This document shows positions 420 through 58,800 of a DNA stretch of 64,000 nucleotides, one piece after another. The number at the start of each line of letters is the position of its first letter. Position 1 is the first letter of the stretch. Location: contig OZ037842.1 of NCBI GenBank assembly GCA_964035575.1, positions 1,302,001 to 1,366,000 on the forward strand, read 5' to 3'. A program made the position numbers and the translations under genes. The notes beneath the pieces are model-generated. The model was given only the letters and a program-made list of their open reading frames with translations, had not been told where the DNA came from and made no database searches. This DNA is from Rhynchopus sp. YZ270_cl-10 (taxonomy: Eukaryota).

Positions 420-1107
420 CATACAATGCAACGAGGCCGGGTACGCCTGAAAATACTCATATCTGGAAAACATATCTGAGGCGTACTCGGGATTAGTTAC
501 GTTTAAGTACGCCTCAGGCACGCCTGAGTATATATCAACGCATACTTGCGTTCCAGGCGCCTGGTGTGTATTTATTCCCCGCAAAAAGGGCCTCTGATCC
601 ATTTCCGGAGCGATCTGAAAAAAGTCCGGGGTCGGACAATTTTTTTAGCAAAAAGTGCGTGACTTTAAGTTTGTACCAAAAATCAGGGGAAAGTATACCC
701 GGTTTCATATTTCTGCTGATATATAAAAATTATGCACAGGTCATCACGTTTCTAAGTCATGCCATGTATTTCCCCCGCCCCCTGAAATGTGCTGAAATCA
801 ACTTTCGGTGTCCTGCTGAGAAAATTGCGGGTCGCAAGATATTTTTAGTGGAAAAATATCATGGTTACCAGAGGCACATTTTTCATCGTGCGACCCCGCA
901 TTTGAAAGATTTTGCTACCTCTGAATCGAAACCCACAAAATTTGGGGGGAAATACTTTTTTGTTCATGACAAAAATGCTGGTAAGAAATATACTCAGGCG
1001 TGCCTGAGGCGTACTTAAACGTAACTAATCCCGAGTACGCCTCAGGCACGCCTGAGTATTTATTTTCAGGCCTTGGCGAGACCGACTCGGCCTCGTTGCA
1101 TTGTATG
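420..1107. mobile_element. 688-bp non-autonomous TIR element (CAT..ATG ends) inserted in the GTGTATACT array
   Basis: TIR CATACAATGCAACGAGGCCG (420-439) / CGGCCTCGTTGCATTGTATG (1088-1107); second inverted block 476-533 vs 988-1045; GTGTAT on both flanks (414-419, 1108-1113). Confidence 0.85.
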
Positions 1108-1575
1108 GTGTATACTGTGTATACTGTGTATACTGTGTATACTGTGTATACTGTGTATACTGTGTATACTGTGTATACTGTGTATACTGTGTATACTGTG
1201 TATACTGTGTATACTGTGTATACTGTGTATACTGTGTATACTGTGTATACTGTGTATACTGTGTATACTGTGTATACTGTGTATACTGTGTATACTGTGT
1301 ATACTGTGTATACTGTGTATACTGTGTATACTGTGTATACTGTGTATACTGTGTATACTGTGTATACTGTGTATACTGTGTATACTGTGTATACTGTGTA
1401 TACTGTGTATACTGTGTATACTGTGTATACTGTGTATACTGTGTATACTGTGTATACTGTGTATACTGTGTATACTGTGTATACTGTGTATACTGTGTAT
1501 ACTGTGTATACTGTGTATACTGTGTATACTGTGTATACTGTGTATACTGTGTATACTGTGTATACTGTGTATACT
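1108..1575. repeat. (GTGTATACT)n microsatellite, about 52 copies
   Basis: Direct reading. Confidence 0.98.
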
Positions 1576-1602
1576 CACAATTATCGCATTAATCAATTAT
1601 CG

Positions 1603-1868
1603 CAGTGTGTACAGTGTGTACAGTGTGTACAGTGTGTACAGTGTGTACAGTGTGTACAGTGTGTACAGTGTGTACAGTGTGTACAGTGTGTACAGTGTGT
1701 ACAGTGTGTACAGTGTGTACAGTGTGTACAGTGTGTACAGTGTGTACAGTGTGTACAGTGTGTACAGTGTGTACAGTGTGTACAGTGTGTACAGTGTGTA
1801 CAGTGTGTACAGTGTGTACAGTGTGTACAGTGTGTACAGTGTGTACAGTGTACAGTGTATTGTACAGT
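1603..1868. repeat. (GTGTACAGT)n microsatellite, about 28 copies
   Basis: Direct reading; the ACTGT core is inverted relative to the preceding arrays. Confidence 0.97.
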
Positions 1869-1882
1869 GAATTTTTTCTAGA

Positions 1883-2077
1883 GGTCAACAACTTGGCCAT
1901 TTCTGCAAAATGACCCCACCACTTCCTGGGATTGGCTCAAAAATGCAAATGCCAGCGTTTTCCTTCACATTCCCGCAAACCCGGAAAAAAAAAATAAAAC
2001 AGGGTACCCCCCAGCCTGGTGCATACCACGGGAGACATACGGGCGAACCACGGGGAATTTGGACCGGTGCCACACCA
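1883..2077. mobile_element. Probable right end of a TG..CA DNA element (left end outside the window) that would enclose the microsatellites
   Basis: GCCACACCA at 2069-2077 equals the right terminus of element 12271-13480; about 1883-1960 matches the internal repeat unit of element 38241-39204 (ACTTGGCCATTTC..AAA-TGACCCCACCAC). Confidence 0.5.
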
Positions 2078-2087
2078 TTGTTTTTTT

Positions 2088-2118
<31 letters not shown>

Positions 2119-2342
2119 TTTTGATTTTTTTTTGTTTTTTTATTGTTTTTTTTTTGAAAAGTAAAAAGTATGTTTGAAAGTGTAACACACGTCTTCGTAG
2201 AAGACGGCGTTCCGCACATGTTTTGTCTTCGCAACCGTCAGTTGCGCTGGTCGTGGTGCCGCAGGTACGTCCTGGGCTTGCTTTTTGTTCGTGGTTTTTT
2301 TTTCTCTTTTCTTTATTGTTTCAAGTTTTGGCCGGCGTCTCC

Positions 2343-5300
2343 TCAGCAGGTGTTGCTCCGCACGAGTTCAGGCAGGCTGGCCTCTGTCAGTTTTGCCGCG
2401 CTGATGTACTTCAGGCACAACTGGGGTTGCTCTAGCAGTAAGAACTTGAGCGACTTGTTTGGCAGTAGGTCTGTCCTTAGTGCCTTGGTGGCTGAACACA
2501 CTTTGAACATATGTTTCAGTGTCGCCTTTGCTTTTGCCGTGCAGTTGTTGCAGCGTGCCACGTCGTTGCTGCCCATGTAGTCGAACAGCGCAGGGTGGCG
2601 CTCTGTCCGCAGCAGTCTCATCTGCACTGCTCCCCGCCGCGTGAGCTCCGGTGTGCTCAGCTTGGGTCGCGCCACTCCCTTCGGGGTGTCCGCCGTGATC
2701 GTGCTGTAGAGTTCGCTCGCCGGTTGGGGTGTGTAGCTGGAGCAGACTGCGCGTATCGCCGCTTTGCACGCGAGGAGCGTGAGTGGTTCCTCTTGTAGGC
2801 GGCCTTTTTGTGATGCCCGTTCTGCTTGGTACGTGGCCGTACCTAACTTGGCTTCGTGGTCCGCTTCCTCATTTCCACTCACCCCCACATGTGACGGGAT
2901 GTACTGCATGATCACCCGCACCTTGGTTGTAGCCCGGTGTAGTGCCGACCACACGTCGCAGAGAAGTCCCGTAGCCTTCACCGGACCTGTCTCCAACGCA
3001 CGTAGTGCTGACTGGCTGTCTGTGAGGATTACCACCGTGTTGTGTTTGTGGTCTGTGCGGTGCAGTTCCTCCACCATCGGAAGTGCCTCTCTGATGGCCA
3101 CCAGCTCGGCGGTGTACGATATGCTCATCCGCCCTGCTCCGACGTTGGCTGTCGCTATTTCTTTGTCGCTGTCTCCCGGGTAGACCACAATGCCTGCACC
3201 CCCGTGGCCTCGTCCACCTTCCACCGACCCGTCTGTATAGACGTGAAGGTCCGCTGGTGGCAGCTCTGCGATGGTCTGCTCTGTCAAGCTTCTCGCCTCT
3301 GCGTCCGTCTGCGTGCCCTTCTTGAAGCCAGCCACGTAGGGCCGGATGTCGACCTTGGGGAGGACCTCCTTCCAGCGCCAGGGTGCCACCGGGTAGTGTG
3401 TCTGGGACATCGCTGGTTGGTCGTGGCGGTACATCTTCGTCTGTTCCACTGTGTCCTTCGCCGACCGTAACCAAGTCAGTTTCGTATCGCTTGAATGCAT
3501 TGCACACTCTGCTGGGGTCTCCAGTTGTCGACGTGCACGTTTGTACAGGGCTGCTGCATCGTATTCGACGTGCTCTCGTATCTTCCTCAGGTGAGCTTCC
3601 CAGAGTAGGTCCTCTGCTTTGGTGTAGTAGTTACACCCGGTGATGACCCTCGCCCCCCTTCGGTGGAGTACTTCCAGAGTTTCAAGGCCTGCCTCATTTA
3701 GCGCTGGTCCCCACACCGCCAGTGCATACGTTATGGTCGGGAGCACGTACGTCATGTACACCTGTCTCAGCATGTGGGCATCGCACCCCCAGTCCCGTCC
3801 AGCCATGAGCTGGATCAGAGAAAGTTTTTTGAGGAACTTTGTCTTCACCGCCGCTAGTTGTGGTTGCATCGTCAGCGCGTCATCCAGTTCCACCCCCAGG
3901 TAACGGACCGTCTGCGCACGGTTCACCACTGCTCCGTCTGCGTACTTCACTTCGCACTTAGCTTTTCTGATGTCGGCACGATCGCCCTTCTCGGTCACTG
4001 GCATCACGAAGGTTTTCCTGCGGGATATCGTGAATCCAAGTTTGGGGAGGTGTTCCTCTAGCAGTGTAAGGACCTTCTGTATCGCCGCTGTTGCTTCCTC
4101 CAGTGTGCGCTCCGTACACATGATGGCCAGGTCGTCAGCGAAGATGCAGAAGTGGGCCGTCGTTCCTTCCAGGATCTCTGCCACCTCCGTCATCACCAGA
4201 TTGAACAGCAGTGGTGAGAGCACTGTGCCCTGGGGAACACCCTCCCGCATCACGTATTCCTCGCTCCGTGTTCCTTCCACCGTTGTCCTTGCCGTTCTGT
4301 GCTTCAGGTAATCCGTGAGCCACCTGATGTATCGCTCTGGTACCTGGTGTTGGTGGAGCCTTTCCGGAATTTTCCCCCGTTTAACCTTGTCGTAGGCCTT
4401 GTCGAGGTCCAGCGTCAGAATGATGGGGACTTCTTTCTTCGCTGCGGAGTCCTTAGCCAGCTGCGTGATGTAGGCCAAGTTGTCCACGGCGGAACGGAAG
4501 CGTCTGAATCCTGTCTGTTTGGGATGTAGGTTCTGTGTGGCCTCGTTTGGGTCTTCCATCAGCTGGAGCAGTCTGTTCGCTAGCACGTGTTCCATCACCT
4601 TACTCACGGTACTCGTCAGGGCTATCGGCCGGTAGGATTCGAGGTCTTCCTCTGGCTTCCCTTGTTTGTGGATAGGGAAAAGTATGGCCTTCTTCCATTC
4701 TTTGGGTAGTTGCCCCTGCTTCCACGAGAGGTTCATCACATGTAGAAGCCCTTTTTTTGCGGCGGGTCCGAGGTGCATCAACATCTCGTTGTGTATCCCA
4801 TCCGCTCCAGGTGACTTTCCTGCTTCTAGGACGTTCAGTGCGGCGTCCAGCTCCTCCAGTGTCAGGGGTGCTTCAGCTCCTTGGGATCCTGCCGTAGTTT
4901 GCTGCTCCGCATCCGGTAGGCCTGTGCCGTCACTCACGCTGCAGTAGTGCTCCCCCAGTGCGTCCGCCTTCTCCTTGTTGGTGGAGAGCTGTTGTTTTTC
5001 CTGTTGTCCCTCTTTTTTCACTTTTATGGGGTACGACTGCGCCTTGTCCGCCCGTCCGTCCAACTCGCGCAGCAGCCTGAAGGCCCCGGAGGTTGCTACT
5101 GCCTTGGTGCACTTGTCCTCCCACACCTCTCTCTTCGCCTTCCGTATCGCATTGGCCGTCTGCCGCCGGAGTTCCGTGAGTGCGTCCCCGTCGGCCACGG
5201 TCAGGGTCTCCTCCTTCTGCTGTCTGCGGAGTTCTCTGTCTCGTTGCTTCTGGGCCTTCTTCACCGCACCGTTGCACCAGCGTCGCTTCTTCTTCCTTGC

Positions 5301-6434
5301 CTTGCCTCTGGGTATGTGCCTCCTCGCGATGTTCTTCACCATCCCTGCCCACTTGGCTGCTGCGGTGCTGATCGAGCCCCACTTCATTGCGTCTGGCGAA
5401 CTGCGCTCCATCTCCTTGGTGAAGCCTGCCCAGTTCGCCTTCTTCCAGTTCCACAGCTCTTTTTTGAGTTTCACCTCAGGATGTGTTGGAGGTGTTTGGG
5501 CGTTCGCTTGCACTTCAAACTCTATCGGCAGGTGGTCGGAGTTGAGCGTTTCCCGTGTTTGCCATATGGGGTCGGCCCAGTCTCTGTCTGCGAAGACCAC
5601 ATCTGGTGACGTTTTGGTACCGCGCTGGATCCGCGTTGCTTCCTTCTTGTTCCAGCATCGCATGTTGTTCCCCAACGCCCAGTCGTGTAGGTCAGTTCCC
5701 GTTTGGTTGGGGATTTTCGCCTGACTCCACGCCTGGTGATGTGCGTTGATGTCCCCTGCGATCACGCAGCCCTCTCCCGTTGGCAGATCCTGCGTTGCGA
5801 AGTCATCCTCTCTCTGGTCCCCCTTCTGTAGACCCACCCCGCTCGGCCGGTACACATTCGTGAAGAGCACGCCCTCCACAATCACATCCAGCCTCTCTGT
5901 GGTCTCCCACGCTTCGAAGGGTTGTTCTGTCGCACGCAAGTTCTTCTTCACCAGTGTCGCAATCCCTCCCCCATGCGTCTCGCTGGTGTCTTTTTTTCGA
6001 GCTACCGTTCGCACCCGCAGGAAAGTCCTGTACCCGTCAAAGTTCAGCTTGCCCGTTTGCGCCGCCATGAGTTCTTGGAGGTGTACTACATCGTACTTCT
6101 CCTTCTCCAGGACCTGCTTCAGCTCCCCTTTCTTCGGGCCCGTCAGCCCCCCCGCATTCCAACTCATGCAGCGAAGGGTTCTTGGTTTTGGTCCTTGCTC
6201 TGGTTCTGGCTCTGGTCCTGGCTCAGGCTCGATGCCGTCCTCTAGCAGTTGGTTGCTCTTGATGGTGGAGGAGGTCTTGTCGAGTGTGGGGTCGGTGTTC
6301 GGTCGACCTGAGTGGTGTTGATGAGTCATCCTTGGGTGTGCGTGGGTCTTCCACTTGTACGGAAGCAAAAAAGGCAGTAGCAGCAGCAGCACACTATCCA
6401 GCATTAACCACACCAACAGCAACACCAGACACAA
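2343..6434 (-). CDS. Retrotransposon ORF2: AP endonuclease, reverse transcriptase, RNase H, C-terminal Cys/His motif
   Basis: APE motifs SWNAGGL, LQE, GDINAHH, DVVF, SDHLPI; RT motifs KSPGADG, YRPIAL, LDLDKAYD, GVPQGTVLSPLLF, FADD, YLGV; RNase H motifs YTDGS, AELVAI, TDSQSAL, SHVGVSGNEEAD; CNNC..H..C. True start uncertain. Confidence 0.96.
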   Translation of the reverse strand: MCLVLLLVWLMLDSVLLLLLPFLLPYKWKTHAHPRMTHQHHSGRPNTDPTLDKTSSTIKSNQLLEDGIEPEPGPEPEPEQGPKPRTLRCMSWNAGGLTGPKKGELKQVLEKEKYDVVHLQELMAAQTGKLNFDGYRTFLRVRTVARKKDTSETHGGGIATLVKKNLRATEQPFEAWETTERLDVIVEGVLFTNVYRPSGVGLQKGDQREDDFATQDLPTGEGCVIAGDINAHHQAWSQAKIPNQTGTDLHDWALGNNMRCWNKKEATRIQRGTKTSPDVVFADRDWADPIWQTRETLNSDHLPIEFEVQANAQTPPTHPEVKLKKELWNWKKANWAGFTKEMERSSPDAMKWGSISTAAAKWAGMVKNIARRHIPRGKARKKKRRWCNGAVKKAQKQRDRELRRQQKEETLTVADGDALTELRRQTANAIRKAKREVWEDKCTKAVATSGAFRLLRELDGRADKAQSYPIKVKKEGQQEKQQLSTNKEKADALGEHYCSVSDGTGLPDAEQQTTAGSQGAEAPLTLEELDAALNVLEAGKSPGADGIHNEMLMHLGPAAKKGLLHVMNLSWKQGQLPKEWKKAILFPIHKQGKPEEDLESYRPIALTSTVSKVMEHVLANRLLQLMEDPNEATQNLHPKQTGFRRFRSAVDNLAYITQLAKDSAAKKEVPIILTLDLDKAYDKVKRGKIPERLHQHQVPERYIRWLTDYLKHRTARTTVEGTRSEEYVMREGVPQGTVLSPLLFNLVMTEVAEILEGTTAHFCIFADDLAIMCTERTLEEATAAIQKVLTLLEEHLPKLGFTISRRKTFVMPVTEKGDRADIRKAKCEVKYADGAVVNRAQTVRYLGVELDDALTMQPQLAAVKTKFLKKLSLIQLMAGRDWGCDAHMLRQVYMTYVLPTITYALAVWGPALNEAGLETLEVLHRRGARVITGCNYYTKAEDLLWEAHLRKIREHVEYDAAALYKRARRQLETPAECAMHSSDTKLTWLRSAKDTVEQTKMYRHDQPAMSQTHYPVAPWRWKEVLPKVDIRPYVAGFKKGTQTDAEARSLTEQTIAELPPADLHVYTDGSVEGGRGHGGAGIVVYPGDSDKEIATANVGAGRMSISYTAELVAIREALPMVEELHRTDHKHNTVVILTDSQSALRALETGPVKATGLLCDVWSALHRATTKVRVIMQYIPSHVGVSGNEEADHEAKLGTATYQAERASQKGRLQEEPLTLLACKAAIRAVCSSYTPQPASELYSTITADTPKGVARPKLSTPELTRRGAVQMRLLRTERHPALFDYMGSNDVARCNNCTAKAKATLKHMFKVCSATKALRTDLLPNKSLKFLLLEQPQLCLKYISAAKLTEASLPELVRSNTC

Positions 6435-6437
6435 CAG

Positions 6438-8495
6438 TCAGTACCGCATGCTGCGGCGCTTCTCTTTCTCTTTCCTTGGCGAGGGGGAGGGCGTCGTCGC
6501 TAAGATCCGTCGTGTGTTCTTGGGGGTGGCACGGTCACGTTCGTCCCGCTCCGCTCTCTTCCCCCTGTTCAGCTGCTTGGGTGGCGTCAAGCCCATGCGG
6601 AGGCGGCGTTCTTCTGCGTGGAGGACGTCCCTCGCACGTTTCAGCTGGCGTTCCTCCTCCTGGCGCACCAGTGCTGCCGCTGTCGCGAGATCCATCTCCT
6701 CCTCTCGCTCTGTTTCCCGCTTTTTTTTTTTAAAAGCCTCGTAAGAGGCTTCGGCCTCTTGCAGCACTGTCTCCGTCGCCAGCCGTTTCGCTTCTGCTGA
6801 GGCGAATGCGTTCCTCCTCTTCTCCTCGGCCAACTCCTCCTGGCGTGTCTTCTTCAGGATTTCGTTATACTCCTGCCACTGTGCTTCTTCGCGTGCCTTC
6901 GCTTCTGCCCTCTCCGCCTCTGCAGTGTCGAATTCACGGCGGCGGTCCGTCTCTTCCTGCCGCCTCTGTGCCTGCAGCCGTTCTTCTGCTTCTTCTCTCT
7001 GTTCGCGTTGCTGTTGTTGTTGCCTCTGCTGTTGTTGCTGCCGCTGCTGCTGTTGTTGCTGCTGTTGCTTCCGCTCCTGTGTTTGCGTGGGTTCCTTCTT
7101 CGCCTTCGTCTCCTTCTTCGGCGGTGCCGTCACCTTCACCTCCTCATCGATTTGCATCTCGCCTTCTCCTTCTTCTTCTTCTTCTTCCGGTTCGGTGCGT
7201 CGCTGTTGTAGCTTTAGGTCGCGCATCTCCGTCATCAGCTGGTCCAGCTGGCTCGCCATGTGTTGCAGCGTCTGCTGCATCTCGTCCTTCTCTGCCCGCA
7301 GTGCATCTTCTCTCTCCTTCGCCTCCAGGAGTTCCCGACGCATCTTCTCCACCTCGGCGTCCTGTGCGGGGTCTGCCACGTAGGGCTTGGGCACGTAGTC
7401 CTGCTGTGCCGCCCTTCCTTCCTCTTTTCCTTTTCCTTTTTTATTTGCGGCGTCAAACAGCCACCCTTCTTTGGTACGGTCGTACCGACGGAAGGTCAGC
7501 ACGTCCTCCCCCACCACTACCGGCTTCAGCGTCCCCGGCGGTGCGCCCCGGACGAGAAGCACCCTGTGCGTGCCGTGCTTGCCGGTCCTCACCAACTCCG
7601 GCTCCCACGCGTGCTGCTCGCTCAGGATTGCCCGCACTCCGTTCTTCGACAGCGAGAGAGGCAGCCCGTCCACCACCCACATCTCTGCCCAGAGGTTCGT
7701 CTTCCCCTGCTCGCCCAACACCTTGCTGGCCTGCTCCTGTGTGGTGCCTTCCGGAACCGCGACGCCGAGTCCGCCCCGCGACAGCAGCACCACTCGCCCG
7801 CTCAGCTCGGTGGCCTGGTTCCGCGCCGTCTCCAGGTTCACTGTGCTCGGTAGCGGCGTCACCCGGTCGCCACCCCGTCCCGACCCGTTGGTGAAGAACG
7901 GCCTGGCGAAGAAGCCGTCATCGCCGCTTCCTGCCAGCACGTCCTTCACCTGCGCGCCGTCTACTCCAATCTTAAAAGCCGCCGTCTTTGCGGCTGGCTT
8001 CCCCTTCTTCGCCTTCAGCTCCACGGCGGTCTGCACCTCGCCTCCGTGTGCCTTCACCCATGCACATGCTGCGGCACGGGTCACGCTGTTGCGGCTTTCC
8101 ACCACAACGTATTTGGTTTGGGGCAATGCCCCCTGGTGCTGCTTTGCATCCGCCGTCTTGTGCACCGCCTGTACGGTGCTGACTGAGCACAGGAACCGGC
8201 GCTCCGTCCTCATCTCCTCCCCCCGCACCGTCACGAGGGAGATCAGTGGGGCCGCCAACCCCTGTGGTTTGTCGGCCGGGGCTACGAGTACCCCTGCCGT
8301 GTGCGCGTGCTGCGGCTTCTGCAGCGCTTCCTGCACTTCCTTACGGCTGCACCACAGGATGCCTCCGTTTTTCTTAAAATCAGCCAAGTTGGCTGCGAGT
8401 CGGCTGTCTGGAAAGTCCTCAGCCCGGGGTCTCCACATCGCCCCTGCCACCTCTTCGTCAGCCTTCTTCATCGTCTGCTGTCCAGAGGACCCCAT
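6438..8495 (-). CDS. Retrotransposon ORF1 (globular N-terminal half; coiled-coil, poly-Q, charged C-terminal half)
   Basis: 685-aa ATG-initiated ORF starting 80 nt downstream of the SL and lying directly upstream of ORF2. Confidence 0.85.
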   Translation of the reverse strand: MGSSGQQTMKKADEEVAGAMWRPRAEDFPDSRLAANLADFKKNGGILWCSRKEVQEALQKPQHAHTAGVLVAPADKPQGLAAPLISLVTVRGEEMRTERRFLCSVSTVQAVHKTADAKQHQGALPQTKYVVVESRNSVTRAAACAWVKAHGGEVQTAVELKAKKGKPAAKTAAFKIGVDGAQVKDVLAGSGDDGFFARPFFTNGSGRGGDRVTPLPSTVNLETARNQATELSGRVVLLSRGGLGVAVPEGTTQEQASKVLGEQGKTNLWAEMWVVDGLPLSLSKNGVRAILSEQHAWEPELVRTGKHGTHRVLLVRGAPPGTLKPVVVGEDVLTFRRYDRTKEGWLFDAANKKGKGKEEGRAAQQDYVPKPYVADPAQDAEVEKMRRELLEAKEREDALRAEKDEMQQTLQHMASQLDQLMTEMRDLKLQQRRTEPEEEEEEGEGEMQIDEEVKVTAPPKKETKAKKEPTQTQERKQQQQQQQQRQQQQQRQQQQQREQREEAEERLQAQRRQEETDRRREFDTAEAERAEAKAREEAQWQEYNEILKKTRQEELAEEKRRNAFASAEAKRLATETVLQEAEASYEAFKKKKRETEREEEMDLATAAALVRQEEERQLKRARDVLHAEERRLRMGLTPPKQLNRGKRAERDERDRATPKNTRRILATTPSPSPRKEKEKRRSMRY

Positions 8496-8575
8496 CGTGG
8501 AGGGGGGTGGCTTATTTGGGGGGAGGGGGGGAGCAGTTGGGATGTGCTCAGGGTTAATTCTTGATTCACTGTGTC

Positions 8576-8614
8576 CAATGAAGTACAGAAACTGTAGCTT
8601 TAGAAATCGTTAGG
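8576..8614 (-). other. Genomic copy of a 39-nt spliced-leader exon
   Basis: Minus strand reads CCTAACGATTTCTAAAGCTACAGTTTCTGTACTTCATTG, containing the euglenozoan SL core ACAGTTTCTGTACT..ATTG. It is followed by GACACAG, not by a GT donor, so it is not an SL RNA gene. Confidence 0.92.
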
Positions 8615-8654
8615 CTTTGTTTTGTGTCGTCGTGCATTATCATATTCTAGTCTA

Positions 8655-8865
8655 ATAAAAACTGGTATCTGAGTTTAAGCCAGTCTGGTAAAGAAAGAAA
8701 CGAAATCAGAAAAATAATTTTTCGTTGATCGCGGATTTTTGTGGAGTGTAGGGACAAAATCAATTTTTTTTTCTGTGAATAAGTTGTCTCGTGTTTACCT
8801 CGCTCTCACGAAAAATTCGGGCTCACTCAAATACGTTTTCATTTCCTCCCCTTCACCTTTGCAAA
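8655..8865. repeat. Dispersed repeat of about 210 bp (inverted copy at about 58580-58800)
   Basis: AAAGAAAGAAACGAAATCAGAAAA..GTGTAGGGACAAAATCAA..TTTTCATTTCCTCCCCT matches the reverse complement of 58580-58800. Confidence 0.85.
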
Positions 8866-9238: not shown

Positions 9239-11812
9239 ATGTCGCGTGCATGTCTGACGGTGCTGCTGTGCGTGGGCGTGGACGTAACCACTGCGTTCCT
9301 GCCAGCGACACCTGCACCGTCGACCACAGATGCGCCACCAACACTTGTACCAGGTCTGGATACTATGTGTGAAGAACGCACTGACCTGAACGAAACTGCT
9401 GGGAACGTGACTTACGCGCACAGCAAGAATACTACGGTTCACTGTTGGCATATTGAGTGCAGCAACTCTGTTGTGATCACGTTCTCACACTTCGAATTGC
9501 CGTATCCCAATTTCCAGATTGCATCCTTAGACCTGTACAGCTCCAGCAATGGCGTGGATTACACTCAAGAGCGCTTCTTTACCCACAATGAAGGTCCTGG
9601 ATCAGATCCTATTGTGCTGAACGGGTTAACATATGTGCAGTTGTTCCCGTTCCCTTCTGCTAATGTTTCTTTCAGTTACGTGTGTGTGGATGCGACACGA
9701 GTACCAACCACAGATGCGCCACCAACCACAGACCCGCCACCAACGCCCGTACCAGGTATCGAGTACACGTGTGATCTGGTCATTGACCTGAACGAAACTG
9801 CTGGGAAGGTGACTTATCCGACCCCCCTTCCTTTCGTTAGCATTTACTGTTGACACATTGCGTGTGACAAGTCTGTTGTGATCACGTTCTCGCACCTCGT
9901 TTTAAAAGGAGACTTGTTCCTGTACAGCTCCGGCAATGGCGTGGATTATACTCTTGCGGACTCCTTTAACTACAAGGACATGAGTCCTGGATCAGTGCCT
10001 ATTGCGCTGAACGGGTCTGCATATGTGCAGTTCTTCCCAGGCGGTGAGTTTTCTTTCGATTACGTGTGTGTGGATGCGACACCGGCACCAACCACAGATG
10101 CGCCCCCAACGCTTGTACCAGGTGTGGATCGCATCTGCCAGGAGTACACTGTATTGAACGATGCTGGACACGTGGATTATGTGCAGAACACGGACCCCGC
10201 AGTGTGTTGGCACATTGCGTGCGACAAGGAGGTAGTGATCACGTTCACATGGTTGACCCTTTATGGAAATACGGTGTTGGACCTGTACAGCTCCAGCAAT
10301 GACACCTACACTCTTGAGAAACATATGACGACCTCTACTCCTACGCCAGAACGCGGTGTTGGTCTGAACGGTTCAGCCTTTCTGCAGTTTGTGAACGGGA
10401 AGGACTCTTCCCTTTCTTTCGACTACGTGTGTATGGACCCGACACCAGTACCAGCCACAGCTGCGCCACCAACGCTTGTACCAGGTGTGGGGGTCTGCCA
10501 GTGGTACGCTGACCTGAACGAAACTGCTGGGAACGTGACTGCCGTGACTTCCGTGAGTGGAACGTGGATTCAGTGTTGGCATATTGGGTGCAACACCCAT
10601 TCATTTGTTGAGATCACGTTCACATCCTTAAAATTTGACCCCCCAACCTTTCTTATGTCATCCTTGGACCTGTACAGCTCCGGCAATGGCGTGGATTATA
10701 CTTTTGCGGACTCCTTTAACTACTATTCCATGAGTCCTGGATCAGTGCCTATTGTGCTGAACGGGTCTGCATATGTGCAGTTGGCGCCACAGGTAGAGGA
10801 TAACTATAATATTTCTTTCGACTACGTGTGTACGAGTGGAACTCCACAGCCAACGACTGAGTCACCACCAACACTTGCACCAGGTGTCGTCGTCACTAAC
10901 TTGAACGAAACTGCTGGGAAGGTGGACTTTGTCAGCAGCATGGACATCAGCGTGGAGTGCTGGTACATTGAGTGCAACAATTCTGTCATGATCACGTTCA
11001 CGACTCTTTCATTGGAAAACTGGGCGTACTTGGAGCTCTTCAGTTCAGAGTCTGAGAACGGCACCATACACTACACCCCTGAGAGGATTATATCGCATTC
11101 GGACAGCACGGGTAGTGGTTTTGTGCTGAACGGTCCGGCCTTGGTGCAATTCATACAGAATTATGGTCTTGGTGAGAATGATGCTTCGAAGGTCGGGTTC
11201 AACTACATGTGTATTGGGAGTCCACAGCCGGCCACAGAGGCGCCACCAACACTTGTACCAGGTGTGGAGTACGTGTGTCAAAACCACACTGACCTGAACG
11301 ATACTTCCGGGAAGGTGTCCTACATGAACCATGAGGCAAACAACACGGCGTGCTGGCACATTGAATGTGACAAGTCTGTTGCGATCACCTTCTCGTACAT
11401 GCAGGTCTACGCACAGTCGTTCTTGTACCTGTACAGTTCAGGGAGCACCTCAGGGAGTGCCACACACTACACCCTGGAGAAGGTGCTGTTCTCGCCCGCT
11501 GCTTCTACGGGTGTTGAATATCTGCTGGATGGTTCGGCCTTGATGCAGTTCAGAAGCGACACTCATGCGGGGAGGACGGAACTTGATTTCGAGTACGTGT
11601 GTCAGAGTGCAGACAAGGACGACGGTGGGCACTCCACGTGGCCGTACGTTGTTTTCCCTGTGGTGGGTGTGCTCTCCCTTGCTCTTGGCGTGGTCGCACT
11701 GCTGAAGTCAGGTGTCTTCAAGGCAAAGGTGTCGAAGTCTTCTCTCAAGGACGGCGTCAACAATAACGAGGGTGCCTCAGTGATCATGCTTGAGGAGTCA
11801 CCCGTGATGTAG
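9239..11812 (+). pseudogene. Type I membrane protein with six CUB-like domains and P/T-rich linkers, interrupted by one in-frame TGA (9851-9853)
   Basis: Signal peptide; six units C..LNETAG.V..CWHI.C..V.ITF..L.LYSS..LNG..VQF..F.YVC; TM segment WPYVVFPVVGVLSLALGVVALL. The two track ORFs share one frame and the stop replaces the W of CWHI. Pseudogene versus readthrough is unresolved. Confidence 0.8.
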
Positions 11813-12046: not shown

Positions 12047-12270
12047 TTTTATATACCCTATACATAGCGCTCCAATTAGACTCTAACTAGATAATTAGAG
12101 TCGGCAGTTCGAGTATAATTAGAGTCTTTAAAACTCTAACTGAACTCTAATACTCTAACTGGACTCTAATTAGAGTCTAATTAGAGTCCTATAAGAGGGT
12201 CAATAAAGAGGGGCACATCAATCAATGCTATAGCCATCAACCCAGGGGGCATAGCTAGTGCAAGAAATTC

Positions 12271-13480
12271 TGGTGTGGCTGAAGGGGGGTGCTATTTTCT
12301 GCTATTTTCTGCTACTTTCTGCTATTTTCTGCTATTTTCTGCTATTTTGGGGGTCTGGATTTTTTTTATTTTTTGGCCGTGGTTTGGGCTTTTGCTAAAG
12401 GGAGGGGAAATGAGGGACTCCTGACCCCAGCCAGTCCCCAAAACACCTACCAAAGATGCAGGACAACGTTTTTTTCGAGCAAAAACGCGTAAAAAATAAG
12501 AGCAATTTTAGCAAAAAAAAAAAAATGTATCTTGTCCCGATATAGACCAGGTGCTGTACTGTGTACTGTGTACTGTGTACTGTGTACTGTGTACTGTGTA
12601 CTGTGTACTGTGTACTGTGTACTGTGTACTGTGTACTGTGTACTGTGTACTGTGTACTGTGTACTGTGTACTGTGTACTGTGTACTGTGTACTGTGTACT
12701 GTGTACTGTGTACTGTGTACTGTGTACTGTGTACTGTGTACTGTGTACTGTGTACTGTGTACTGTGTACTGTGTACTGTGTACTGTGTACTGTGTACTGT
12801 GTACTGTGTACTGTGTACTGTGTACTGTGTACTGTGTACTGTGTACTGTGTACTGTGTACTGTGTACTGTGTACTGTGTACTGTGTACTGTGTACTGTGT
12901 ACTGTGTACTGTGTACTGTGTACTGTGTACTGTGTACTGTGTACTGTGTACTGTGTACTGTGTACTGTGTACTGTGTACTGTGTACTGTGTACTGTGTAC
13001 TGTGTACTGTGTACTGTGTACTGTGTACTGTGTACTGTGTACTGTGTACTGTGTACTGTGTACTGTGTACTGTGTACTGTGTACTGTGTACTGTGTACTG
13101 TGTACTGTGTACTGTGTACTGTGTACTGTGTACTGTGTACTGTGTACTGTGTACTGTGTACTGTGTACTGTGTACTGTGTACTGTGTACTGTGTACTGTG
13201 TACTGTGTACTGTGTACTGTGTACTGTGTACTGTGTACTGTGTACTGTGTACTGTGTACTGTGTACTGTGTACTGTGTACTGTGTACCTTATGATCCGTT
13301 TGTGGAGTGGGAGGGGGTTTCCGGGTTTGCGGGCTGGCCAAGTTTTCTTCCCTCGTCCATCATGAGCCACACCACCACCCAGCCACCAAACCCAAAAAAA
13401 TCCCCCCTAAAGTGCTATTTTCTGCTATTTTCTGCGATTTTCTGCTATTTTCTGCTATTTTGGGGTCGTCAGCCACACCA
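12271..13480. mobile_element. Nested TG..CA element with 12-bp TIR, 5-bp TSD and a central microsatellite
   Basis: TGGTGTGGCTGA..TCAGCCACACCA; AATTC duplicated (12266-12270, 13481-13485); empty site CAAGAAATTCGA in the 18.5-kb copy; (GCTATTTTCT)n at both ends in direct orientation. Confidence 0.92.
12554..13287. repeat. (GTGTACT)n microsatellite, about 104 copies
   Basis: Direct reading. Confidence 0.98.
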
Positions 13481-14190
13481 AATTCGACTTTGTAATCCAG
13501 AAAGTCTGTTCTCTGCTTGCAGAGAACCAGACACAAGAAAATATTGTTTGTTCCCAGAACACCAGTGCACAATTCACACTCCTTGTGGATGGTCTTGTTG
13601 CCTTTTTAGCACAGGAATTTTGGCCCAGGGGCATGCACTTGAAGCATGGCTATTAGTCAGTTGACTCCCCAGTAGTGTGTATGGGGCAGTGTTGTTTTGT
13701 TATGAATTCTCTTTGGTATTGTCGATCGCGGGTAGTTGTTCAACGCGAGGCTTGGATCTCTCCTGGGTTCATAAGTAGTATTTCTTCGGCTGAAATGAAC
13801 GTATGCTCGCTATAGATTTCCCGTCAACACAGCCTTTGATACTGGGATTACCCCTTCGACCCCTTAGTGGTAGTTAAATTCGATTGATATTTACATTCCT
13901 ACAGATGAAAGAACAAGACACCACTTCTGTACCCGCGCATCAACATTTGTAGAAAACTTTGCACCCGAAACACCTTTCAATAATGCCCGCCAAAAGGCGC
14001 CCCTTGTTGCTGGGAGTTTCTCATGTTTGATACCTGCACAGCAGGCATTCCTCTGAGTCCAACGCTGCTTGGCCTGTCTGCGGCGTTGCACCGAAGGTGC
14101 ACATAGAGTTTTTGCATCGCATTCCCTAATGTATGGGGCACTCACACTTGAGGGCCTGTGCCACTGCGCGGGTCTGAGTACCTGGGTACC

Positions 14191-14376
14191 CATAGCTGAG
14201 AATAAGCCGGGTCCCGAGTCCCGGTACTGGGTACTAGGTACAGTAGGACTAGGACTAGGCCCCCACCCTCCCGCGACCGGGTCCCCGACCCGCTTTCAGG
14301 CGGACCACAGCGCCTTCACATATTGTGTCCCAGTCCGGCTGAGAACTCGGTTCCCCAAGTCTTATTTTCAGCTATG
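14191..14376. mobile_element. 186-bp mini TIR element (CATAG..CTATG, 8-bp TSD; P/hAT-type); second copy at 19236-19424
   Basis: TIR CATAGCTGAGAATAAG / CTTATTYTCAGCTATG; TSD TGGGTACC (14183-14190, 14377-14384). Confidence 0.8.
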
Positions 14377-14671
14377 TGGGTACCTGGGCACCTGGGTCCT
14401 ACAGAGGAACCTTAGGGGAACCGGTTCCTTACGGCGTTTGCACCTACAAGAAGCCTGTTGTTTTACTCTAATTAGACTATAATTAGAGTGTAGTTAGAGT
14501 CTAATTATGCTCTAACTGCACTCTAATTATAGTCTAATTGAAGAAAAGCGACTCTAATTATACTCTAACTGGACTCTAACTGACTTGGCCCAAAATCCCA
14601 GACTCTAATTATACCCTAATACTCTAATTAGAGCGCTATGTATAATACCCCCATCTTTTTTTAGCACATAT

Positions 14672-14777
14672 CAGATGTAACCCACGAAACGGATGTAGGA
14701 CTGCATGGTTGGTCCACCCCGGTACAGCCGGTCATGTACCAAGGTACACTGTCACGAGCGGGCTGTTGTATTTCAAG
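14672..14777 (+). repeat. Multi-hairpin dispersed repeat of about 100 nt (copies 39798-39898, 47126-47214, 60385-60481; partial at about 17953 and 49310)
   Basis: Shared AGATGTAAACCACGAAA..GGAC..GTCC..CCGGTACAGCCGG..TACCAAGGTAC..ACGAGAGGGCT..TGTATTTCAA, always on +. Confidence 0.8.
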
Positions 14778-15074
14778 TTGACTTTTGCTTCTTTTTTAAA
14801 GAAAGTCGAACAGTTGTCAGTTCTACTCCGGCTGACTAGGTCGGATTACCACCTGCAAACATCTTAAAGATTCTTTTAGGTGTCAGTACTAAAAATATTG
14901 GCAGCGCTTTGGCTTACCCGACTTTGTGCGCACAAGCAAAATCCCGATTTTTTCTCTCTCTGTTTCTCTTGTTTCACGACAGATGACCTTGTATTGGTTT
15001 CGTGGAGGAGGCTGGCATACGAGGGACTCTCATTTGCCAGGAGAAGGCGGAGGGGTTTTTTTTTTTATTCCCCT

Positions 15075-15424
15075 GGGAAATAAAGTATACGAAGGATTTG
15101 GCACTTTTAGCGGGATTTTATTTAATGATAATTTCACGCTAAATTTTGGTACATGTAGGTAGTAGGGCTGGAGGGACCGTCCAGCCTTTTTTAGCCTCCC
15201 TCCAGCCTCCTCAATCCCGCCAGCCCCTCAGCGGGCCTATCTAGGGGTCCGCGGGACCCGGTAGCGCTGGCGGGAGGGTAATGAGAGCTTTTTTTTTTTT
15301 TTTTTCACGCTCTTTTTTTTTTTCTTTCCCTGAGAGCTTCCTGTGAGGACACATACTCGTTAGTTATTGCACAATAAATAAGTCACGCTAAAAGTGCCAA
15401 ATCCTTTCGTATACTTTATTTCCC
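15075..15424. mobile_element. MITE-like inverted-repeat element of about 350 bp
   Basis: GGGAAATAAAGTATACGAAGGATTTGGCACTTTTAGCG vs CGCTAAAAGTGCCAAATCCTTTCGTATACTTTATTTCCC; no clear TSD. Confidence 0.7.
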
Positions 15425-15440
15425 GTGAAATAAAATTACG

Positions 15441-15606
15441 TATTCACCTCCTTTTAGCGGATTATTTTGCGATACTTCACTTATTTTTTTCCCAGGCTCG
15501 TGCACTCAATTTGCCTCGCTTCGCTCGGCAAATTAAGTAGCCCTCGCCTGGGAAAAAAATGCGTGAAGTTATCGCAAAATAAAACCCCGCTAAAAGGAGG
15601 TGAATA
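15441..15606. repeat. 166-bp imperfect palindrome centred on GCCTCGCTTCGCTCGGC
   Basis: TATTCACCTCCTTTTAGCGG..TTTTTTCCCAGGC..AATTTGCC | GGCAAATT..GCCTGGGAAAAAA..CCGCTAAAAGGAGGTGAATA. Confidence 0.85.
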
Positions 15607-15664
15607 AATAGTTATTTTTTTTTTTTTTTTTTTTCACTGTAACCTACCAGGGTTTTTTTATTTT

Positions 15665-17897
15665 GAGAAAAGTTCGATTTCGGCCTCGAAAATTACCGTG
15701 ACACCGATTTGTCACGGAATTTTGTCACGGAATTTTTTTGAAAGATTCGATTTCGTGACAAAAAAAAATCGATTTCGTGACAAACCAATTTTTTCATTGA
15801 CACACAAAATTCGATTTCGTGACAAACCGATTTTTTCATTGACAAAAAAAAATTCGATTTCGTGACAAATCCAAAAATTCAGTGACAAAAAAATGTCAAT
15901 GAAAAAATGGATTTTGTCAAGGAAACCGAACTTTTTGTCACGGAAAAAGTCGTGACAGAAATGGATTTTGTCAAGGAAACCAAACTTTTTGTCACGGAAA
16001 AAGTCGTGACAGGGCACTGGGTACTGGGTACACTGGATACAAGGATAAAAGTCGTGAAAGAGCAACCACAGCTCCACATGACAAACACAAAAGTGTCCAG
16101 TCACGTGGGGCATGCATGCACTGAGGAGATAATGATCCAACAATTTACAAGAAAGATTACTTAACCTACTGCTGGAAATTGCCAGGTCGTAGTAACACAC
16201 AAAGTGTGCCTCCGTTCGGGAAGACCGGATATTCTAGAGACCAAAAAGGCCTCAAGAATATCTTCCGGTAGTCAAGGTATAACCGAATGAACGGCCCAAG
16301 ACCCCCGTGGAGAAGTTAAATGTGTAATGCTATCAGGTAGAAACTGCGAACACTGTCTTACCCTCCTCAATGCATGGTGGAAGATGTCTTTACAACAAAT
16401 ATCCTGTACCCAGGTACCAGGTTCCCAGACCCACGTAGTACCACGTCGCAGTACTACGCAAAATTTACCACCAGACCCTGTCTTCGTGCACCTTAAGTAC
16501 AACGCCGCAGACAGGCCAAACATGCGTTGGACTCAGAGGAATGCCTGCTGTGCAGTGTATCAAACATGAGAACCAACTCCCAGCAACAAGGGGCGCCTTT
16601 TGGCGGGCGTTGTTGAGGGTGTTTGGGGTGCAAAGTTTTCCACAATTTTGATGCGCGGGTACAGAAGTGTTATCTTGTTCTTTCATCTCTAGGAAATGTA
16701 AATGTCAATCGCGTTTAACTACCACTAGGGCTTGTTCAGTGAACCCACAAGGGGTCGAAGGGGGTTGGTTATCCCGTATCTATCAAAGGTTGTGTCGACC
16801 AGGCTAAACCACTATGTTACGCTGTACGTTGTTAAATCCGAAGAAATAACACTTTAGCAGCCGCAGGAAGTTTGCTAAAAAGAGTGCCTCACGCTACACA
16901 AACCACCACCCGCGATTGACTTAGATGTTATAACAAAGAGAATTCAGAACAAAACAACACCCTGCCCCATACACACTAAATTGTCATGCTTCGAGAGCAT
17001 GCCTGGGCCAAAATTACTATGACGAAAAGGCAACAAGACCACCCACAAGGAGTGTGAATTGTGCACTGGTTTTCTGGGGGAACAAACAATATTTTCTTGT
17101 GTCTAGTCCTCCGGAAGCAGAGGACAGACTTTCCGGAAGGTTTCCAAAGTCGAATTTCTTGCACTAGCTATGCTCCCTGGTTAATGGCTATAGCAGTGAC
17201 TGACAAAGTGTTCCCACCCCCCTTTCCACCACCATAATAACCGAACTCTGCTTATCAAACCACAATCTGAATCTGCTTCCGTCGCATGCGCTGGTGGATT
17301 CGATCTGTTTTGGTGTGTGTAATGGAATGTATGGGTGAGGGTTGGGGTATTAGGTATAGAAACTTGCGCACCCATTAATTTTTTACCGAATGAAAATGAA
17401 ATCTGCAATGAGTGTCTGCTGCATATCATTTAGTGGGGCTGGCCTCTGGCCAGAGGCGTGCAAGCCTGACCGTGTTCGCGATATACTAAGTCTTGCATAA
17501 TCATAAAGTTATCATACCTTGTGTCTTCAGTCTCTGCCCTTAGGTTTCTAGACAGCTCAAGAATGGCCTCTTTTGTGTTTGTCAAGTGGCTGTCTGGTCA
17601 CTTTTCAGTGACTGGCGGGTTGGCTGTCACGACTTTTTCCTTGACAAAATCCATTTTTTTCAATGACATTTTTTTGTCAATGAAAAAATGGATTTGTCAC
17701 GAAATCGAATTTTTTTTTGTCAATGAAAAAAGTCATTTGTCACTAAATTGAATTTTGTGTGTCAATGAAAAAATCGGCTTGTCACGAAATCGAACTTTTT
17801 TTGTCACGAAATCGAATCTTTCAAAAAAATTCCGTGACAAAGTACCGTGACAAATCGGTGTCACGGGTATTTTCGAGGCCGAAATCGAACTTTTCTC
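15665..17897. mobile_element. Foldback-type Mutator-like element with internally repetitive TIRs of about 270-350 bp
   Basis: GAGAAAAGTTCGATTTCGGCCTCGAAAA..TTTTCGAGGCCGAAATCGAACTTTTCTC; 9-bp TSD TTTTATTTT (15656-15664, 17898-17906); TCGATTTCGTGACAAA subrepeats. Confidence 0.88.
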
Positions 17898-18343
17898 TTT
17901 TATTTTTATTTTCTGTCTCTGGTTGTTTAGTTGTGCTTTGTTTTGTTTTCTTAGGTACACTGTCCCGCGAGGGCTTTGTATTGCAACGTTCTTTTTCCCT
18001 TTGCATCTCTGCTTTCCCTACGAGCTCTGATACGGTATCCTCAAAGTGCATGTGTTTTTTTGTCATGCGTATGCATCTTGTGTTAGTCTTCAAAAAGTGT
18101 TTATTGAACTGAAATTGCGGGATGGTAGCACTACCCGCTGGCAGTTCCTGCATGGCCACATAGACTTCTCTTTATTTGCAATAAGGGGAGGTGTTTTTTT
18201 TTTTTTTTTTGTTCACCTTCGATTTATTCAAAAACAAAGCGTGCCCCCCATTCCCCCTATTTTTCCTCGCACGGTGGACTGCTCAATGCAAAAGTACTGT
18301 TCAATGACCAAATAACCGACCTTTCCATTTCACTCAAGCTATA

Positions 18344-19690
18344 TACATAGCGCTCTAATTAGACTCCAACTAGATAATTAGAGTCGGCAGTTAGAGTATA
18401 ATTAGAGTCTTTAAAACTCTAACTGAACTCTAATACTCTAACTGGACTCTAATTAGACTCTAATTAGAGTCTTATAATAGGGTCAATAAGAGGGGCACAT
18501 CAACCAATGCTATAGCCATAAACCCAGGGAGCATAGCCAGTGCAAGAAATTCGATTTTGTAATCCAGAACGTCTGTTTTCTGCTTGCAGAGGACTAGATA
18601 CAAGAAAATATTGTTTGTTCCCCCAGAAAACCAGTGCACAATTCACACTGGTCTTGTTGCCTTTTTAGCACAGGAATTTTGGCCCAGGGCATGATCACTT
18701 GAAGCATGGCACTTTAGTGTGCATGGGGTAGGGTGTTGTTTGTTATGAATTCTCTTTGTTATAACATCTAAGTCAATCGCGGGTGGTGGTTTAGCGCGAG
18801 GCTTGGATCTCTCCTGGGTTCATAAGTAGTTATTTCTGCGGATGAAATGAACGTATACTCATAGATTTCCCGTCGACACAACCTTTGATACTGGGATTAT
18901 CCCCTTCGACCCCTTAGTGGTAGTTAAACTCGATTGACATTTACATTCCTAGAGATGAAAGAACAAGACAACACTTCTGTACCCGCGCATCAAAATTGTG
19001 GAAAACTTTGCACCCCAAACATCCTCAATAACGCCCGCCAAAAGGCGCCCCTTGTTACTGGGAGTTGGTTCTCATGTTTGTTACCTGCACAGCAGGAATT
19101 CCTCTGAGTCCAACGCTGTTTGGCCTGTCTGCGGCATTGCACCCGAAGGTGCACGAAGAGTTTTTGCGGTGTCGCATTCCCTCATGTGTGGGTCACTCAC
19201 ACTTGAGGGCATGTGCCACTGCGGGTCCGGGTACCCATAGCTGAGAATAAGCCGGGTCCCGAGTCCCGGGTACTAGGTACAGTAGGACTTGGACTAGGCC
19301 CCCACCCTCCCGCGACCGGGTCCCCGACCCGCTTTCAGGCGGACCCAGCGCCTTCACATAGTTGTGTCCCAGTCCGGCTGAGAATAACCGGGTCCCGGGT
19401 CCCCAAGTCTTATTCTCAGCTATGTGGGCACCTGGACACCTGGGTCCTACAGAGGAACCTTAGGGGAACCAGTTCCTTAAGGCGTTTGCACCTACAAGAA
19501 GCCTGTTGTTTTACTCTAATTAGACTATAATTAGAGTGTAGTTAGAGTCTAATTATGCTCTAACTGCGCTCTAATTATAGTCTAATTGAAGAAAAGCGAC
19601 TCTAATTATACTCTAACTGGACTCTAACTGACTTGACCCAAAATCCCAGACTCTAATTATACCCTAACACTCTAATTGGAGCGCTATGTA
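18344..19690. mobile_element. TA-flanked MITE, copy 2
   Basis: Same TIRs and body as 12061-14642, without the 12271 insertion. Confidence 0.9.
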
Positions 19691-19903
19691 TAAAGCTAGG
19701 TTTTTTTTATTTTGTCTCTCCACGGAGAACCTGAAGGTTATAGTACATTTTGTTATGGTTGACCAAACAAACCGGCCTCAATCAAAGTTTGTGGTCATGC
19801 GTCCATACCCCCACCTTACTCCAGCTCACTTCTTTTAAGATACTAACATTCTCCTGCACAGAGGTGGGTGGTCGAAGTAAACACAACACAACATCACCGA
19901 ACG

Positions 19904-22259: not shown

Positions 22260-23217
22260 GGGAAAACCTTTATTCGGCTCACAAAAAGTAATTTTTCCAT
22301 CATTCGGCTCACAAAATAAAATTTTTCCATCATTCTATCAAAGTTACTATAATTTTTCCTTCATTCGGCTCACAAAAGTTAATTTTTCCACCATTCTATC
22401 AATATTTTGCCAATTTTTCCATCATTCTATCAAAGTTTTTTTTTTCACTTTTTCGAAGAAATTTTTGCCGCTGGAAAAAAAAAATTGGGTGGTTTTTTGA
22501 GGAAAAATGGGGTCATTTTTTTTGCATTTTTCGAAAAATTTATAGTTCTAGGGTCACAAATTACACACTGTTTGCTAAACATGCAAAGACAAGTGGTCAC
22601 TGGTGCCGAGTTTAACAGCTTGGATGACCTAAAGGAGACGGTAACGTGGCAGTCCTTCATCCTCCACATTTTTCCTTCCGCGTCTCGAACCGCACAGGCA
22701 CCCGAATGACCCTTGTGTGCCGGTTCCTTATGTGCATGGAGGGTGTGTGCGGTGCAAGACGGTGATGGTTGTCGCATCACCCAGCACGAGCGCACCTGCA
22801 CCTCTGACGATCACCCTGTTGCCAACACAGGAATCGTCGGCGCCGTCGCCTCCCGGACCTGCGATAACGTGAGAAGTGTATCAAACTATGGTGCACATAG
22901 TGTGATTGCTGACATGCGTGACCTTCGCCGCAATAAGTCACCTACGAATTTTCCCTCCCACAACCTATAAAAACGGGCAAAAAATCCTACCCAAAAATTT
23001 TTTCCAGCGGAAATATTTCCTCGAAAAAGTGAAAAAAAAAACTTTGATAGAATGATGGAAAAATTGGCAAAATATTGATAGAATGGTGGAAAAATTAACT
23101 TTTGTGAGCCGAATGAAGGAAAAATTATAGTAACTTTGATAGAATGATGGAAAAATTTTATTTTGTGAGCCGAATGATGGAAAAATTACTTTTTGTGAGC
23201 CGAATAAAGGTTTTCCC
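22260..23217. mobile_element. Non-autonomous Mutator-like element, TIRs of about 230 bp, with a transposase N-terminal remnant
   Basis: GGGAAAACCTTTATTCGGCTCAC..GTGAGCCGAATAAAGGTTTTCCC; perfect 9-bp TSD TACATTTTT (22251-22259, 23218-23226); internal GAEFNSLDDLKE and CAWRVCA peptides. Confidence 0.92.
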
Positions 23218-30964: not shown

Positions 30965-31438
30965 ATGTTGCGTGCCTATGTGGCGATGCTGTGCTTCGTG
31001 TGTGTGAATGCGACACCAACAGGCCTGAAATACCCTTGCAATGGTTGCACAGAACTGAATACTACTACTGGGAACGTGACTTACGCGAATGTCACGGTTT
31101 CCACTCAGGGCGCAGTGTGTTGGCACATTGCGTGCGACAAGGAGGTTGTGGTGACGTTTACCTCCTGGAATATGGACGACACGAATTTGCTCCTTTACGA
31201 ATCGCTCGGGTATGATGACTACTACCATTTGTACGCAACGTTGTACTATTGGGCTGATTTTCCAAAAGGTCCTTATGTGCTGAAGGGTTCGGCGTTTTTG
31301 CAGTTGTATGAACAGTACTCCACGAGACGCTACTCAAGCTTTGCACTCAGCTATGTGTGTCAGAGTGCACCACCACCAACACCGCCTACCACTGATGCTC
31401 TTGCTGTCAAACCAGAACACAAAATCAACCAAACATAG
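30965..31438 (+). CDS. Secreted single-CUB-domain protein, paralog of 9239-11812
   Basis: Signal peptide; LNTTTGNVTY..AVCWHIACDKEVVVTF; shares the 5' leader CAGAGCT..AGAAGCAACACA with the 6xCUB gene; no TM segment. Confidence 0.8.
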   Translation: MLRAYVAMLCFVCVNATPTGLKYPCNGCTELNTTTGNVTYANVTVSTQGAVCWHIACDKEVVVTFTSWNMDDTNLLLYESLGYDDYYHLYATLYYWADFPKGPYVLKGSAFLQLYEQYSTRRYSSFALSYVCQSAPPPTPPTTDALAVKPEHKINQT

Positions 31439-58579: not shown

Positions 58580-58800
58580 CTTGCAAAGGTTGTAGGGGAG
58601 GAAATGAAAACATATCTGAGTTGTGCCCGAATTTTTTTGGTGTGAGCGATGTAAACACGACACAACTTATCCACAGAAAAGTTTTTGATTTTGTCCCTAC
58701 ACACTCCACAAAAATCCGGTGCGATCAACGAAAAATTCTTTTTCTGATTTCGTTTCTTTCTTTATCAGACTAGCTTAAACTCAGATAACAGTTTTTATTT
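58580..58800. repeat. Inverted copy of the 8655-8865 repeat
   Basis: See 8655-8865. Confidence 0.85.

Follow-up and report, generated by a model that had tools for sequence, protein, structure and literature searches.

When a LINE carries a spliced leader (SL) at its 5′ end, does the leader define where the element begins, or does it record how a single copy was made? The question is raised by an element on the minus strand of the window, by which is meant the whole 64-kb stretch of DNA analysed here. The earlier note had described an APE-type LINE headed by a complete SL and had suggested that trans-splicing may set its 5′ end. The answer considered probable is narrower: an intact, young LINE copy was retroposed from RNA that had been trans-spliced at the element's own AG, and reverse transcription stalled at a cap-4-like methylated 5′ end. 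The SL-tagged retrocopy of an autonomous LINE is real, and it is less radical than the former proposal.

The junction is as had been described. Minus-strand positions 8615-8569 do carry the quoted letters, which occur nowhere else in the window; 80 nt lie between the SL end (8576) and the ORF1 ATG (8495), and the SL is seen directly to join the element at its exon end, with no GT after it. The supposedly complete 39-nt SL, however, is a relic of nt 5-40 of a 40-nt host-type SL exon, placed at 8576..8611 (minus strand) with no intron following. These limits are read directly from the letters; the relic measures 36 nt, or 35 should its first base, an A facing nt 5, match by chance. Its counterpart is an SL gene from the metagenome (L088), with a 40-nt exon that starts with AACC and then a GT intron close to the SL intron seen in the run contigs. 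Positions 5-40 of this exon agree exactly with the window (36/36), and the run contigs likewise identify the relic as host-type SL. One of the first four positions matches, nt 1-4 being replaced by four other letters (8612..8615, minus strand).

The SL contigs of the sequencing runs align over 8611-8576 only, record 27 of run X5 with 0 differences. Beyond 8611 the loose-end consensus in X1 is AACC on the element's strand (12 contigs, agreement 0.84), and at the other side X1 (21 contigs) and X5 have a loose end made of the SL intron, which starts with GT. A host SL variant bearing the window's first letters is ruled out by these SL contigs and by L088, both of which read AACC. The G at 8615 had been interpreted as a copied cap; this idea fails because the G faces SL nt 1 and not the cap position. 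The letters at 8612..8615 are likely to be misread modified bases or untemplated additions. With as many as 3 mismatches allowed, the window has one SL-like site against 0.21 expected, the second-best ungapped score elsewhere in it is 21/36, and the chance of a 36-mer match in the window is about 3e-17. The AGs inside the relic and the CAG 7 nt downstream, put forward as possible acceptors for a further cycle, are preceded by 30 nt with 43-57% pyrimidine.

The element behind this leader is an intact LINE with two ORFs. Its 5′ UTR (8496..8575, minus strand) is 80 nt long, C-rich and almost unstructured (MFE −4.6 kcal/mol), and it starts right after the native AG of another copy. No ribozyme family was detected in the 5′ end region at E up to 10, and an Rfam search of the whole window gave nothing at gathering score. 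ORF1 (6438..8495, minus strand) encodes 685 aa with predicted RRM-like domains at aa about 122-205 and 268-341, C-terminal to which lies a long charged region rich in Q, E and R. An RRM domain is expected in a LINE ORF1. The protein has 31 relatives and no Pfam match, and word-index and ESM Atlas searches with it gave no usable result. A model built from 31 sequences reached a mean pLDDT of 79.9 (33.6 for the single-sequence fold), and its comparison with RRM domains gave a best Foldseek E of 1e-4 and a best Z of 8.8 (rmsd 2.1, 71 aligned residues); on this structural model ORF1 is predicted to be RRM-type.

The ORF1 stop is a TGA followed by CTG (6435..6440, minus strand), which we take to be a possible read-through context. 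ORF2 lies in the same frame and may be made by read-through of this stop. After the TGA-CTG comes a hydrophobic run and then a degenerate 2A-like peptide (ORF2 aa 58-64, at 6213..6233 on the minus strand) with E in place of the consensus N; canonical NPGP 2A forms occur in ORF2 relatives. The uninterrupted ORF2 (2343..6404, minus strand) encodes 1353 aa with APE, reverse transcriptase (RT), RNase H and a C-terminal CCHC-like motif. Its catalytic motifs are intact, and the APE domains at its N-terminus bear out the assignment to the APE type. The 90% cluster of ORF2 has 30 members, and among the 15 listed, 7 have the full length of 1353 aa, are 99.1-100% identical and lie on contigs of 0.5-1.6 Mb. 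These near-identical full-length copies, seen directly, mean that the family is young; judged from its sequences, it is also active and the window element intact. Named relatives of ORF2 are few, two of them from Diplonema papillatum at 28-32% identity. In an RT tree of 29 rows, built without named ingi or L1Tc, ORF2 groups with P0002 and P0003 (100/98), and no ORF2 relative was found as a DNA locus in viral_contigs or genome_contigs. The element ends in an A-rich tail whose A-runs are broken by C (2078..2156, minus strand). A candidate 7-bp target-site duplication (8617..8623, partner 2078-2084, minus strand) is weak because it overlaps this tail.

How other copies of the family begin can be judged from contigs of four sequencing runs (X1, X2, X3 and X5, out of 24 listed), which belong to three studies. 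In such contigs depth does not equal copy number and rare variants are dropped, and the runs carry no record of being RNA or DNA. In X1, X3 and X5, that is, in three of the four runs and all three studies, the contig with the element's 5′ end leaves the window at 8576, exactly at the SL junction. The letters beyond this point do not align to the SL and number 38 (X1, record 3), 13 (X3, record 18) and 14 (X5, record 25). In X5 a form without SL is seen directly: upstream of 8576 record 25 has a run of seven C and then, at a distance of three bases from each other, two AG; the latter of these falls exactly at the junction. The letters beyond the junction were read in X5 alone. The C-tract with AG appears, from its letters, to be a host-style acceptor; several host genes of the window have C-rich tracts upstream of a CAG (by eye, 11 genes). 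The parent form with an AG acceptor at the junction, the mark of an SL-tagged retrocopy, is thus present in one run. In X2 an SL-joined element contig is seen directly, 4 nt longer at the junction and with a depth of 140 of 2326, whereas the upstream CAG of X5 would give 3 nt. That RNA was trans-spliced before it was reverse-transcribed, as had been supposed, is the most likely origin of this copy, since the junction at the exon end coincides with the native AG of another copy.

The stronger claim, that the SL is the 5′ end of the family, has weakened: this copy does carry the leader, whereas non-SL 5′ contigs are found in X1, X3 and X5. In its full form this explanation holds that the SL is the standard 5′ end, with all or most full-length copies SL-headed and re-spliced at each cycle. 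We regard it as rather unlikely, even if the window copy is both SL-headed and intact. It draws on X2 as well, where, next to the SL-joined contig, a depth of about 2185 (of 2326 at 8574) is assigned to neither the SL nor the non-SL form. The 38 unaligned letters of X1 could also end in an SL tail, as they could be 14 native letters plus the end of a leader joined at an upstream acceptor. A further contig of X1, with a joint from 8611 to 8575, contains an SL end, a G, a short A-run and then an SL with the AACC start, at a depth of 796. This SL stacked on a full SL may be counted in favour of repeated splicing, but the contig is not tied to the LINE. Since contigs drop rare variants, SL-headed sister copies are possible in X1, X3 and X5, and the missing SL-joined contigs of these runs, being contig absence, prove nothing alone. 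Against standard SL heading, the whole depth at 8574 in X3 and X5 (2.3 and 3.08) equals one non-SL contig, and X5 looks like DNA because its exon and exon-intron SL contigs have nearly equal depth (84.2 and 79). Record 3 of X1 by itself accounts for that run's entire depth over 8536-8557. Finally, the element bears no stacked or older SL relic in the window, its 5′ UTR included. On the best reading, the acceptor belongs to the element itself, and its 5′ end need not be the SL.

The place where the relic begins bears on how the copy was made. A scan of metagenomes for the SL returned at least 123 stretches in 121 loci. In the sorting of 129 matches to the 39-nt diplonemid-type SL, among the matches listed, 82 lie at a contig end and are uninformative, seven are full SL genes, four are full SLs without GT (virus-like), 14 are of kinetoplastid type or diverged and were set aside (including L047), 17 are stacked directly on another SL and five have other flanks. 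Among these same matches, every truncated diplonemid-type SL with upstream letters (22/22) starts at nt 6 (18) or nt 7 (4), whereas the SL-gene matches are full length in 7/7. The stacked ones are transcript-like contigs with the second SL starting at nt 6 or 7 (L006, L008, L011, L016, L028, L032, L034, L039, L042, L043, L057, L060, L078, L082, L097, L103 and L121). As their names point to one series, they may be a single library or assembly artefact rather than real re-splicing; even so, they would show the stop point of RT. Two of the other five truncated copies have only 2-3 upstream letters. L070 and L091 are clean nt-6 relics with long unrelated flanks, and L094, which also starts at nt 6, is ambiguous, with a GT at its end; all three have the same assembly prefix as L009, where full-length SL genes lie. 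In X2 another SL stops at nt 6, with an unrelated pyrimidine-rich flank. L070 also holds a 735-aa open frame (48-2332) with zinc-finger-like motifs; it has no Pfam match and no homologue, and for this reason it was not counted as a retroelement.

Reverse transcriptase stops at cap 4. In the parts of the reports available, trypanosome cap 4 spans SL nt 1-4 (PMC4783070, PMC13393146), and these nucleotides, when modified, are left unprotected by a complementary probe (PMC2879531). From the truncation at nt 5-7 we infer a cap-4-like block to reverse transcription, and the prediction follows that diplonemids have a cap-4-like structure.

A one-off template switch could give a similar product, either by a jump of the enzyme to an SL-bearing molecule such as a free SL exon or by landing of the element behind an existing SL relic. 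The jump onto a free exon would likewise put the junction at the exon end, the 17 SL-on-SL contigs indicate that such joins do arise somewhere, and a single SL-headed genomic copy is known here. The switch would nevertheless have had to join exactly on the native AG, which happens by chance in about 1 of 16 cases, and to lose the upstream C-tract just as splicing does; moreover, an independent SL-joined form exists in X2. Such an event is considered unlikely.

Retroposition of trans-spliced RNA would proceed in a few steps. Element RNA, probably produced by read-through of host polycistronic transcription, would bear, some 80 nt ahead of ORF1, the C-tract with its AG. The spliceosome would swap the part upstream of this acceptor for the capped SL, and the RNA should thereby become translatable. 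ORF1p and ORF2p would then copy the SL-capped RNA in cis; with 4-5 nt left before the cap, RT would halt and, a few non-matching letters later, join. Since unspliced RNA would yield copies that retain the acceptor, two 5′ forms would coexist, the SL-headed one probably in the minority. Bolder, and on balance doubtful, is the possibility that diplonemid LINEs dropped the promoter-ribozyme for a built-in acceptor, that routine retroposition of SL-capped RNA gave rise to an SL-headed sub-lineage, and that the loss of nt 1-4/5 is a cap-4-like fossil and a tag of euglenozoan retrocopies.

The junction could also be an assembly artefact or a chimera of genomic DNA and cDNA. The exact window junction (relic at 8576 to 8575) is found in none of the contigs listed for the four runs, none of those listed bridges the relic and the flank, and positions 8624-8645 have zero depth in 4/4 runs, which as contig absence proves nothing alone. 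Against this stands the window itself, a continuous, N-free 64 kb with ordinary genes, in which the element has its tail, flanks and candidate target-site duplication. In addition, a high-copy 36-nt repeat is unbridgeable by contigs, and a young insertion may be missing in other strains. An artefact is judged very unlikely.

The SL could also be of target origin. NeSL-1 of nematodes inserts into SL genes and has a restriction-like endonuclease. SLACS, CZAR and CRE insert into SL genes by means of such an endonuclease (PMC12278014, as far as its accessible text goes). The window element resembles all of these in being a non-LTR element that abuts SL sequence; it differs in having an APE and in sitting outside any SL gene. 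Under SL-gene targeting, the exon and one G would be a target duplication, and it is true that the SL intron, too, begins with G, the base that directly follows the exon here. A comparable arrangement exists in another organism, at L062 (18-6044), where an A-run and an SL tail precede a 1847-aa RT frame in what looks like a tandem CRE/SLACS junction. In the window, in contrast, there is an APE and no restriction-like endonuclease, the same G occurs in non-SL copies, the upstream side has neither an SL promoter nor nt 1-4, and the tail is followed by neither an SL remainder nor an intron. The SL promoter upstream and the SL intron downstream, which had been named as signs of targeting, are both absent, and targeting is excluded for this copy; as an explanation it is scarcely credible.

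The trypanosomatid elements ingi and L1Tc share with the window LINE the APE, RT and RNase H, the A-rich tail, a 2A-like peptide before the APE (degenerate in the window LINE) and a euglenozoan host. The window element differs from them in its separate RRM-type ORF1, its 5′ AG acceptor and its SL-headed copy. As far as the accessible text of the reports goes, ingi and L1Tc start at the 77-nt Pr77 promoter/ribozyme, their RNAs are unspliced, and 0 of 19 RIME/ingi cDNAs carried an SL (PMC12278014, PMC1874656). Their unspliced RNA intermediate sets the window LINE apart from them, as here an SL-headed copy and, in X2, an SL-joined contig are found. Neither Pr77 nor an HDV-like ribozyme is present in this copy, whose native end upstream of the AG is absent.

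The closest parallel is offered by the "recycled mRNAs" of dinoflagellates, in which, in the portions available, a genomic SL relic marks the retrotranscription of trans-spliced RNA (PMC3229502, PMC5585692, PMC12014239). Here, too, a genomic 5′ SL relic is joined at the exon end without an intron. The difference lies in the copied RNA, which is that of an autonomous LINE itself, in a euglenozoan. Moreover, the truncation at nt 5 does not coincide with an AG, whereas the transcript relics of dinoflagellates, as described in the parts seen, lose their 5′ part when a further splicing event uses an internal AG. SL-tagged retrocopies as such are known from those accounts. In the literature covered, which leaves out most subscription papers, no SL-headed LINE was found in a euglenozoan. 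Seven supplement files of PMC10161547 contain no SL term, and the SL RNA and repeat sections of its Additional file 1, seemingly outside these, may bear on the matter. A tblastn search with ORF2 hit only L072 among 125 SL-pattern loci, among the matches listed. The 1547-aa product of this locus (694-6184) has APE, RT and RNase H; some 820 nt beyond its stop, a relic of kinetoplastid-type SL heads another frame. Since the SL follows the RT frame instead of preceding it, L072 was rejected as a second SL-headed APE LINE, and no other was present among these loci in the matches listed.

It has been held, in the accessible part of PMC1874656, that trypanosome LINEs avoid trans-splicing because their 5′ end would be cut off. 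A young, intact euglenozoan LINE copy made from trans-spliced RNA indicates that this route can give a complete coding copy. Two matters become testable in genomes: the frequency of mRNA retroposition in euglenozoans, for which SL relics could serve as tags the way they do in dinoflagellates, and the presence of a cap-4-like structure in diplonemids, from relics starting at nt 5-7.

The window is eukaryotic DNA, and its host is probably a diplonemid, judged by the SL type, the Diplonema relatives of ORF2 and the gene arrangement. The SL row labelled "Euglenozoa 14" is one that we take to be Diplonema. The host SL type is similar to this row of PMC3795323 in the part available. In Diplonema papillatum, unidirectional gene clusters and SL trans-splicing have been described (PMC10161547, accessible sections). 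In the window the host genes lie on the plus strand from 9239 onward, and the LINE, on the minus strand, stands directly ahead of the cluster with simple tandem repeats adjoining it. Next to the element, outside it, is a dispersed repeat of about 210 nt (8654..8864, minus strand) with an 88% copy at 58581-58799. It contains a strong pyrimidine tract (83% pyrimidine) with an AG near 8685; the strongest acceptor in the neighbourhood of the SL-headed copy lies there. Its depth is very high, with many different flanks in X1-X3, and it is absent from X5.

Other features of the window were also recorded. Tandem arrays at 60-400, 1110-1560 and 1600-1850, with 5- and 9-nt units, lie near the 3′ end of the LINE and overlap in part an inverted repeat (420-536 and 985-1107). 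The frames at 9239-11812 and 30965-31438 encode membrane-anchored proteins of one family, in which cysteine-containing modules are repeated within the chain, and the two that were scanned have no Pfam match. Several inverted or dispersed repeats, up to 1.2 kb at 88%, occupy 12048-19693 and 22260-23217, among them a 221-nt inverted pair at 98.6%; they are possibly non-autonomous DNA transposons.

A separate observation concerns SL copies in giant-virus-like DNA, which emerged from the SL scan of viral_contigs. One 238-kb contig has 9 SL copies together with VLTF3, Bro-N and NUDIX genes; one further copy lies on a GVMAG contig, one of kinetoplastid type on a third contig, and others at L061, L065, L113 and L122. 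In these virus-like loci (L126-L135 of IMGVR_UViG_3300046534_001516, L129, L131 and the four just named) a full SL, of diplonemid type in all but one, stands before genes. No copy has a GT after it, and AAAA(A/T)TGA lies 18-19 nt ahead of the SL start in 14 of 15. This motif is the mimivirus-type early promoter according to PMC5871332, the accessible part of which does not mention an encoded SL, and titles and abstract openings in the literature searched held nothing on an SL encoded by giant viruses. Viruses of diplonemids had no experimental verification according to the part available of PMC8061765. Judging by their letters and position, the giant-virus SLs are likely to be SL mimicry, and their diplonemid type points to giant viruses with diplonemid hosts.
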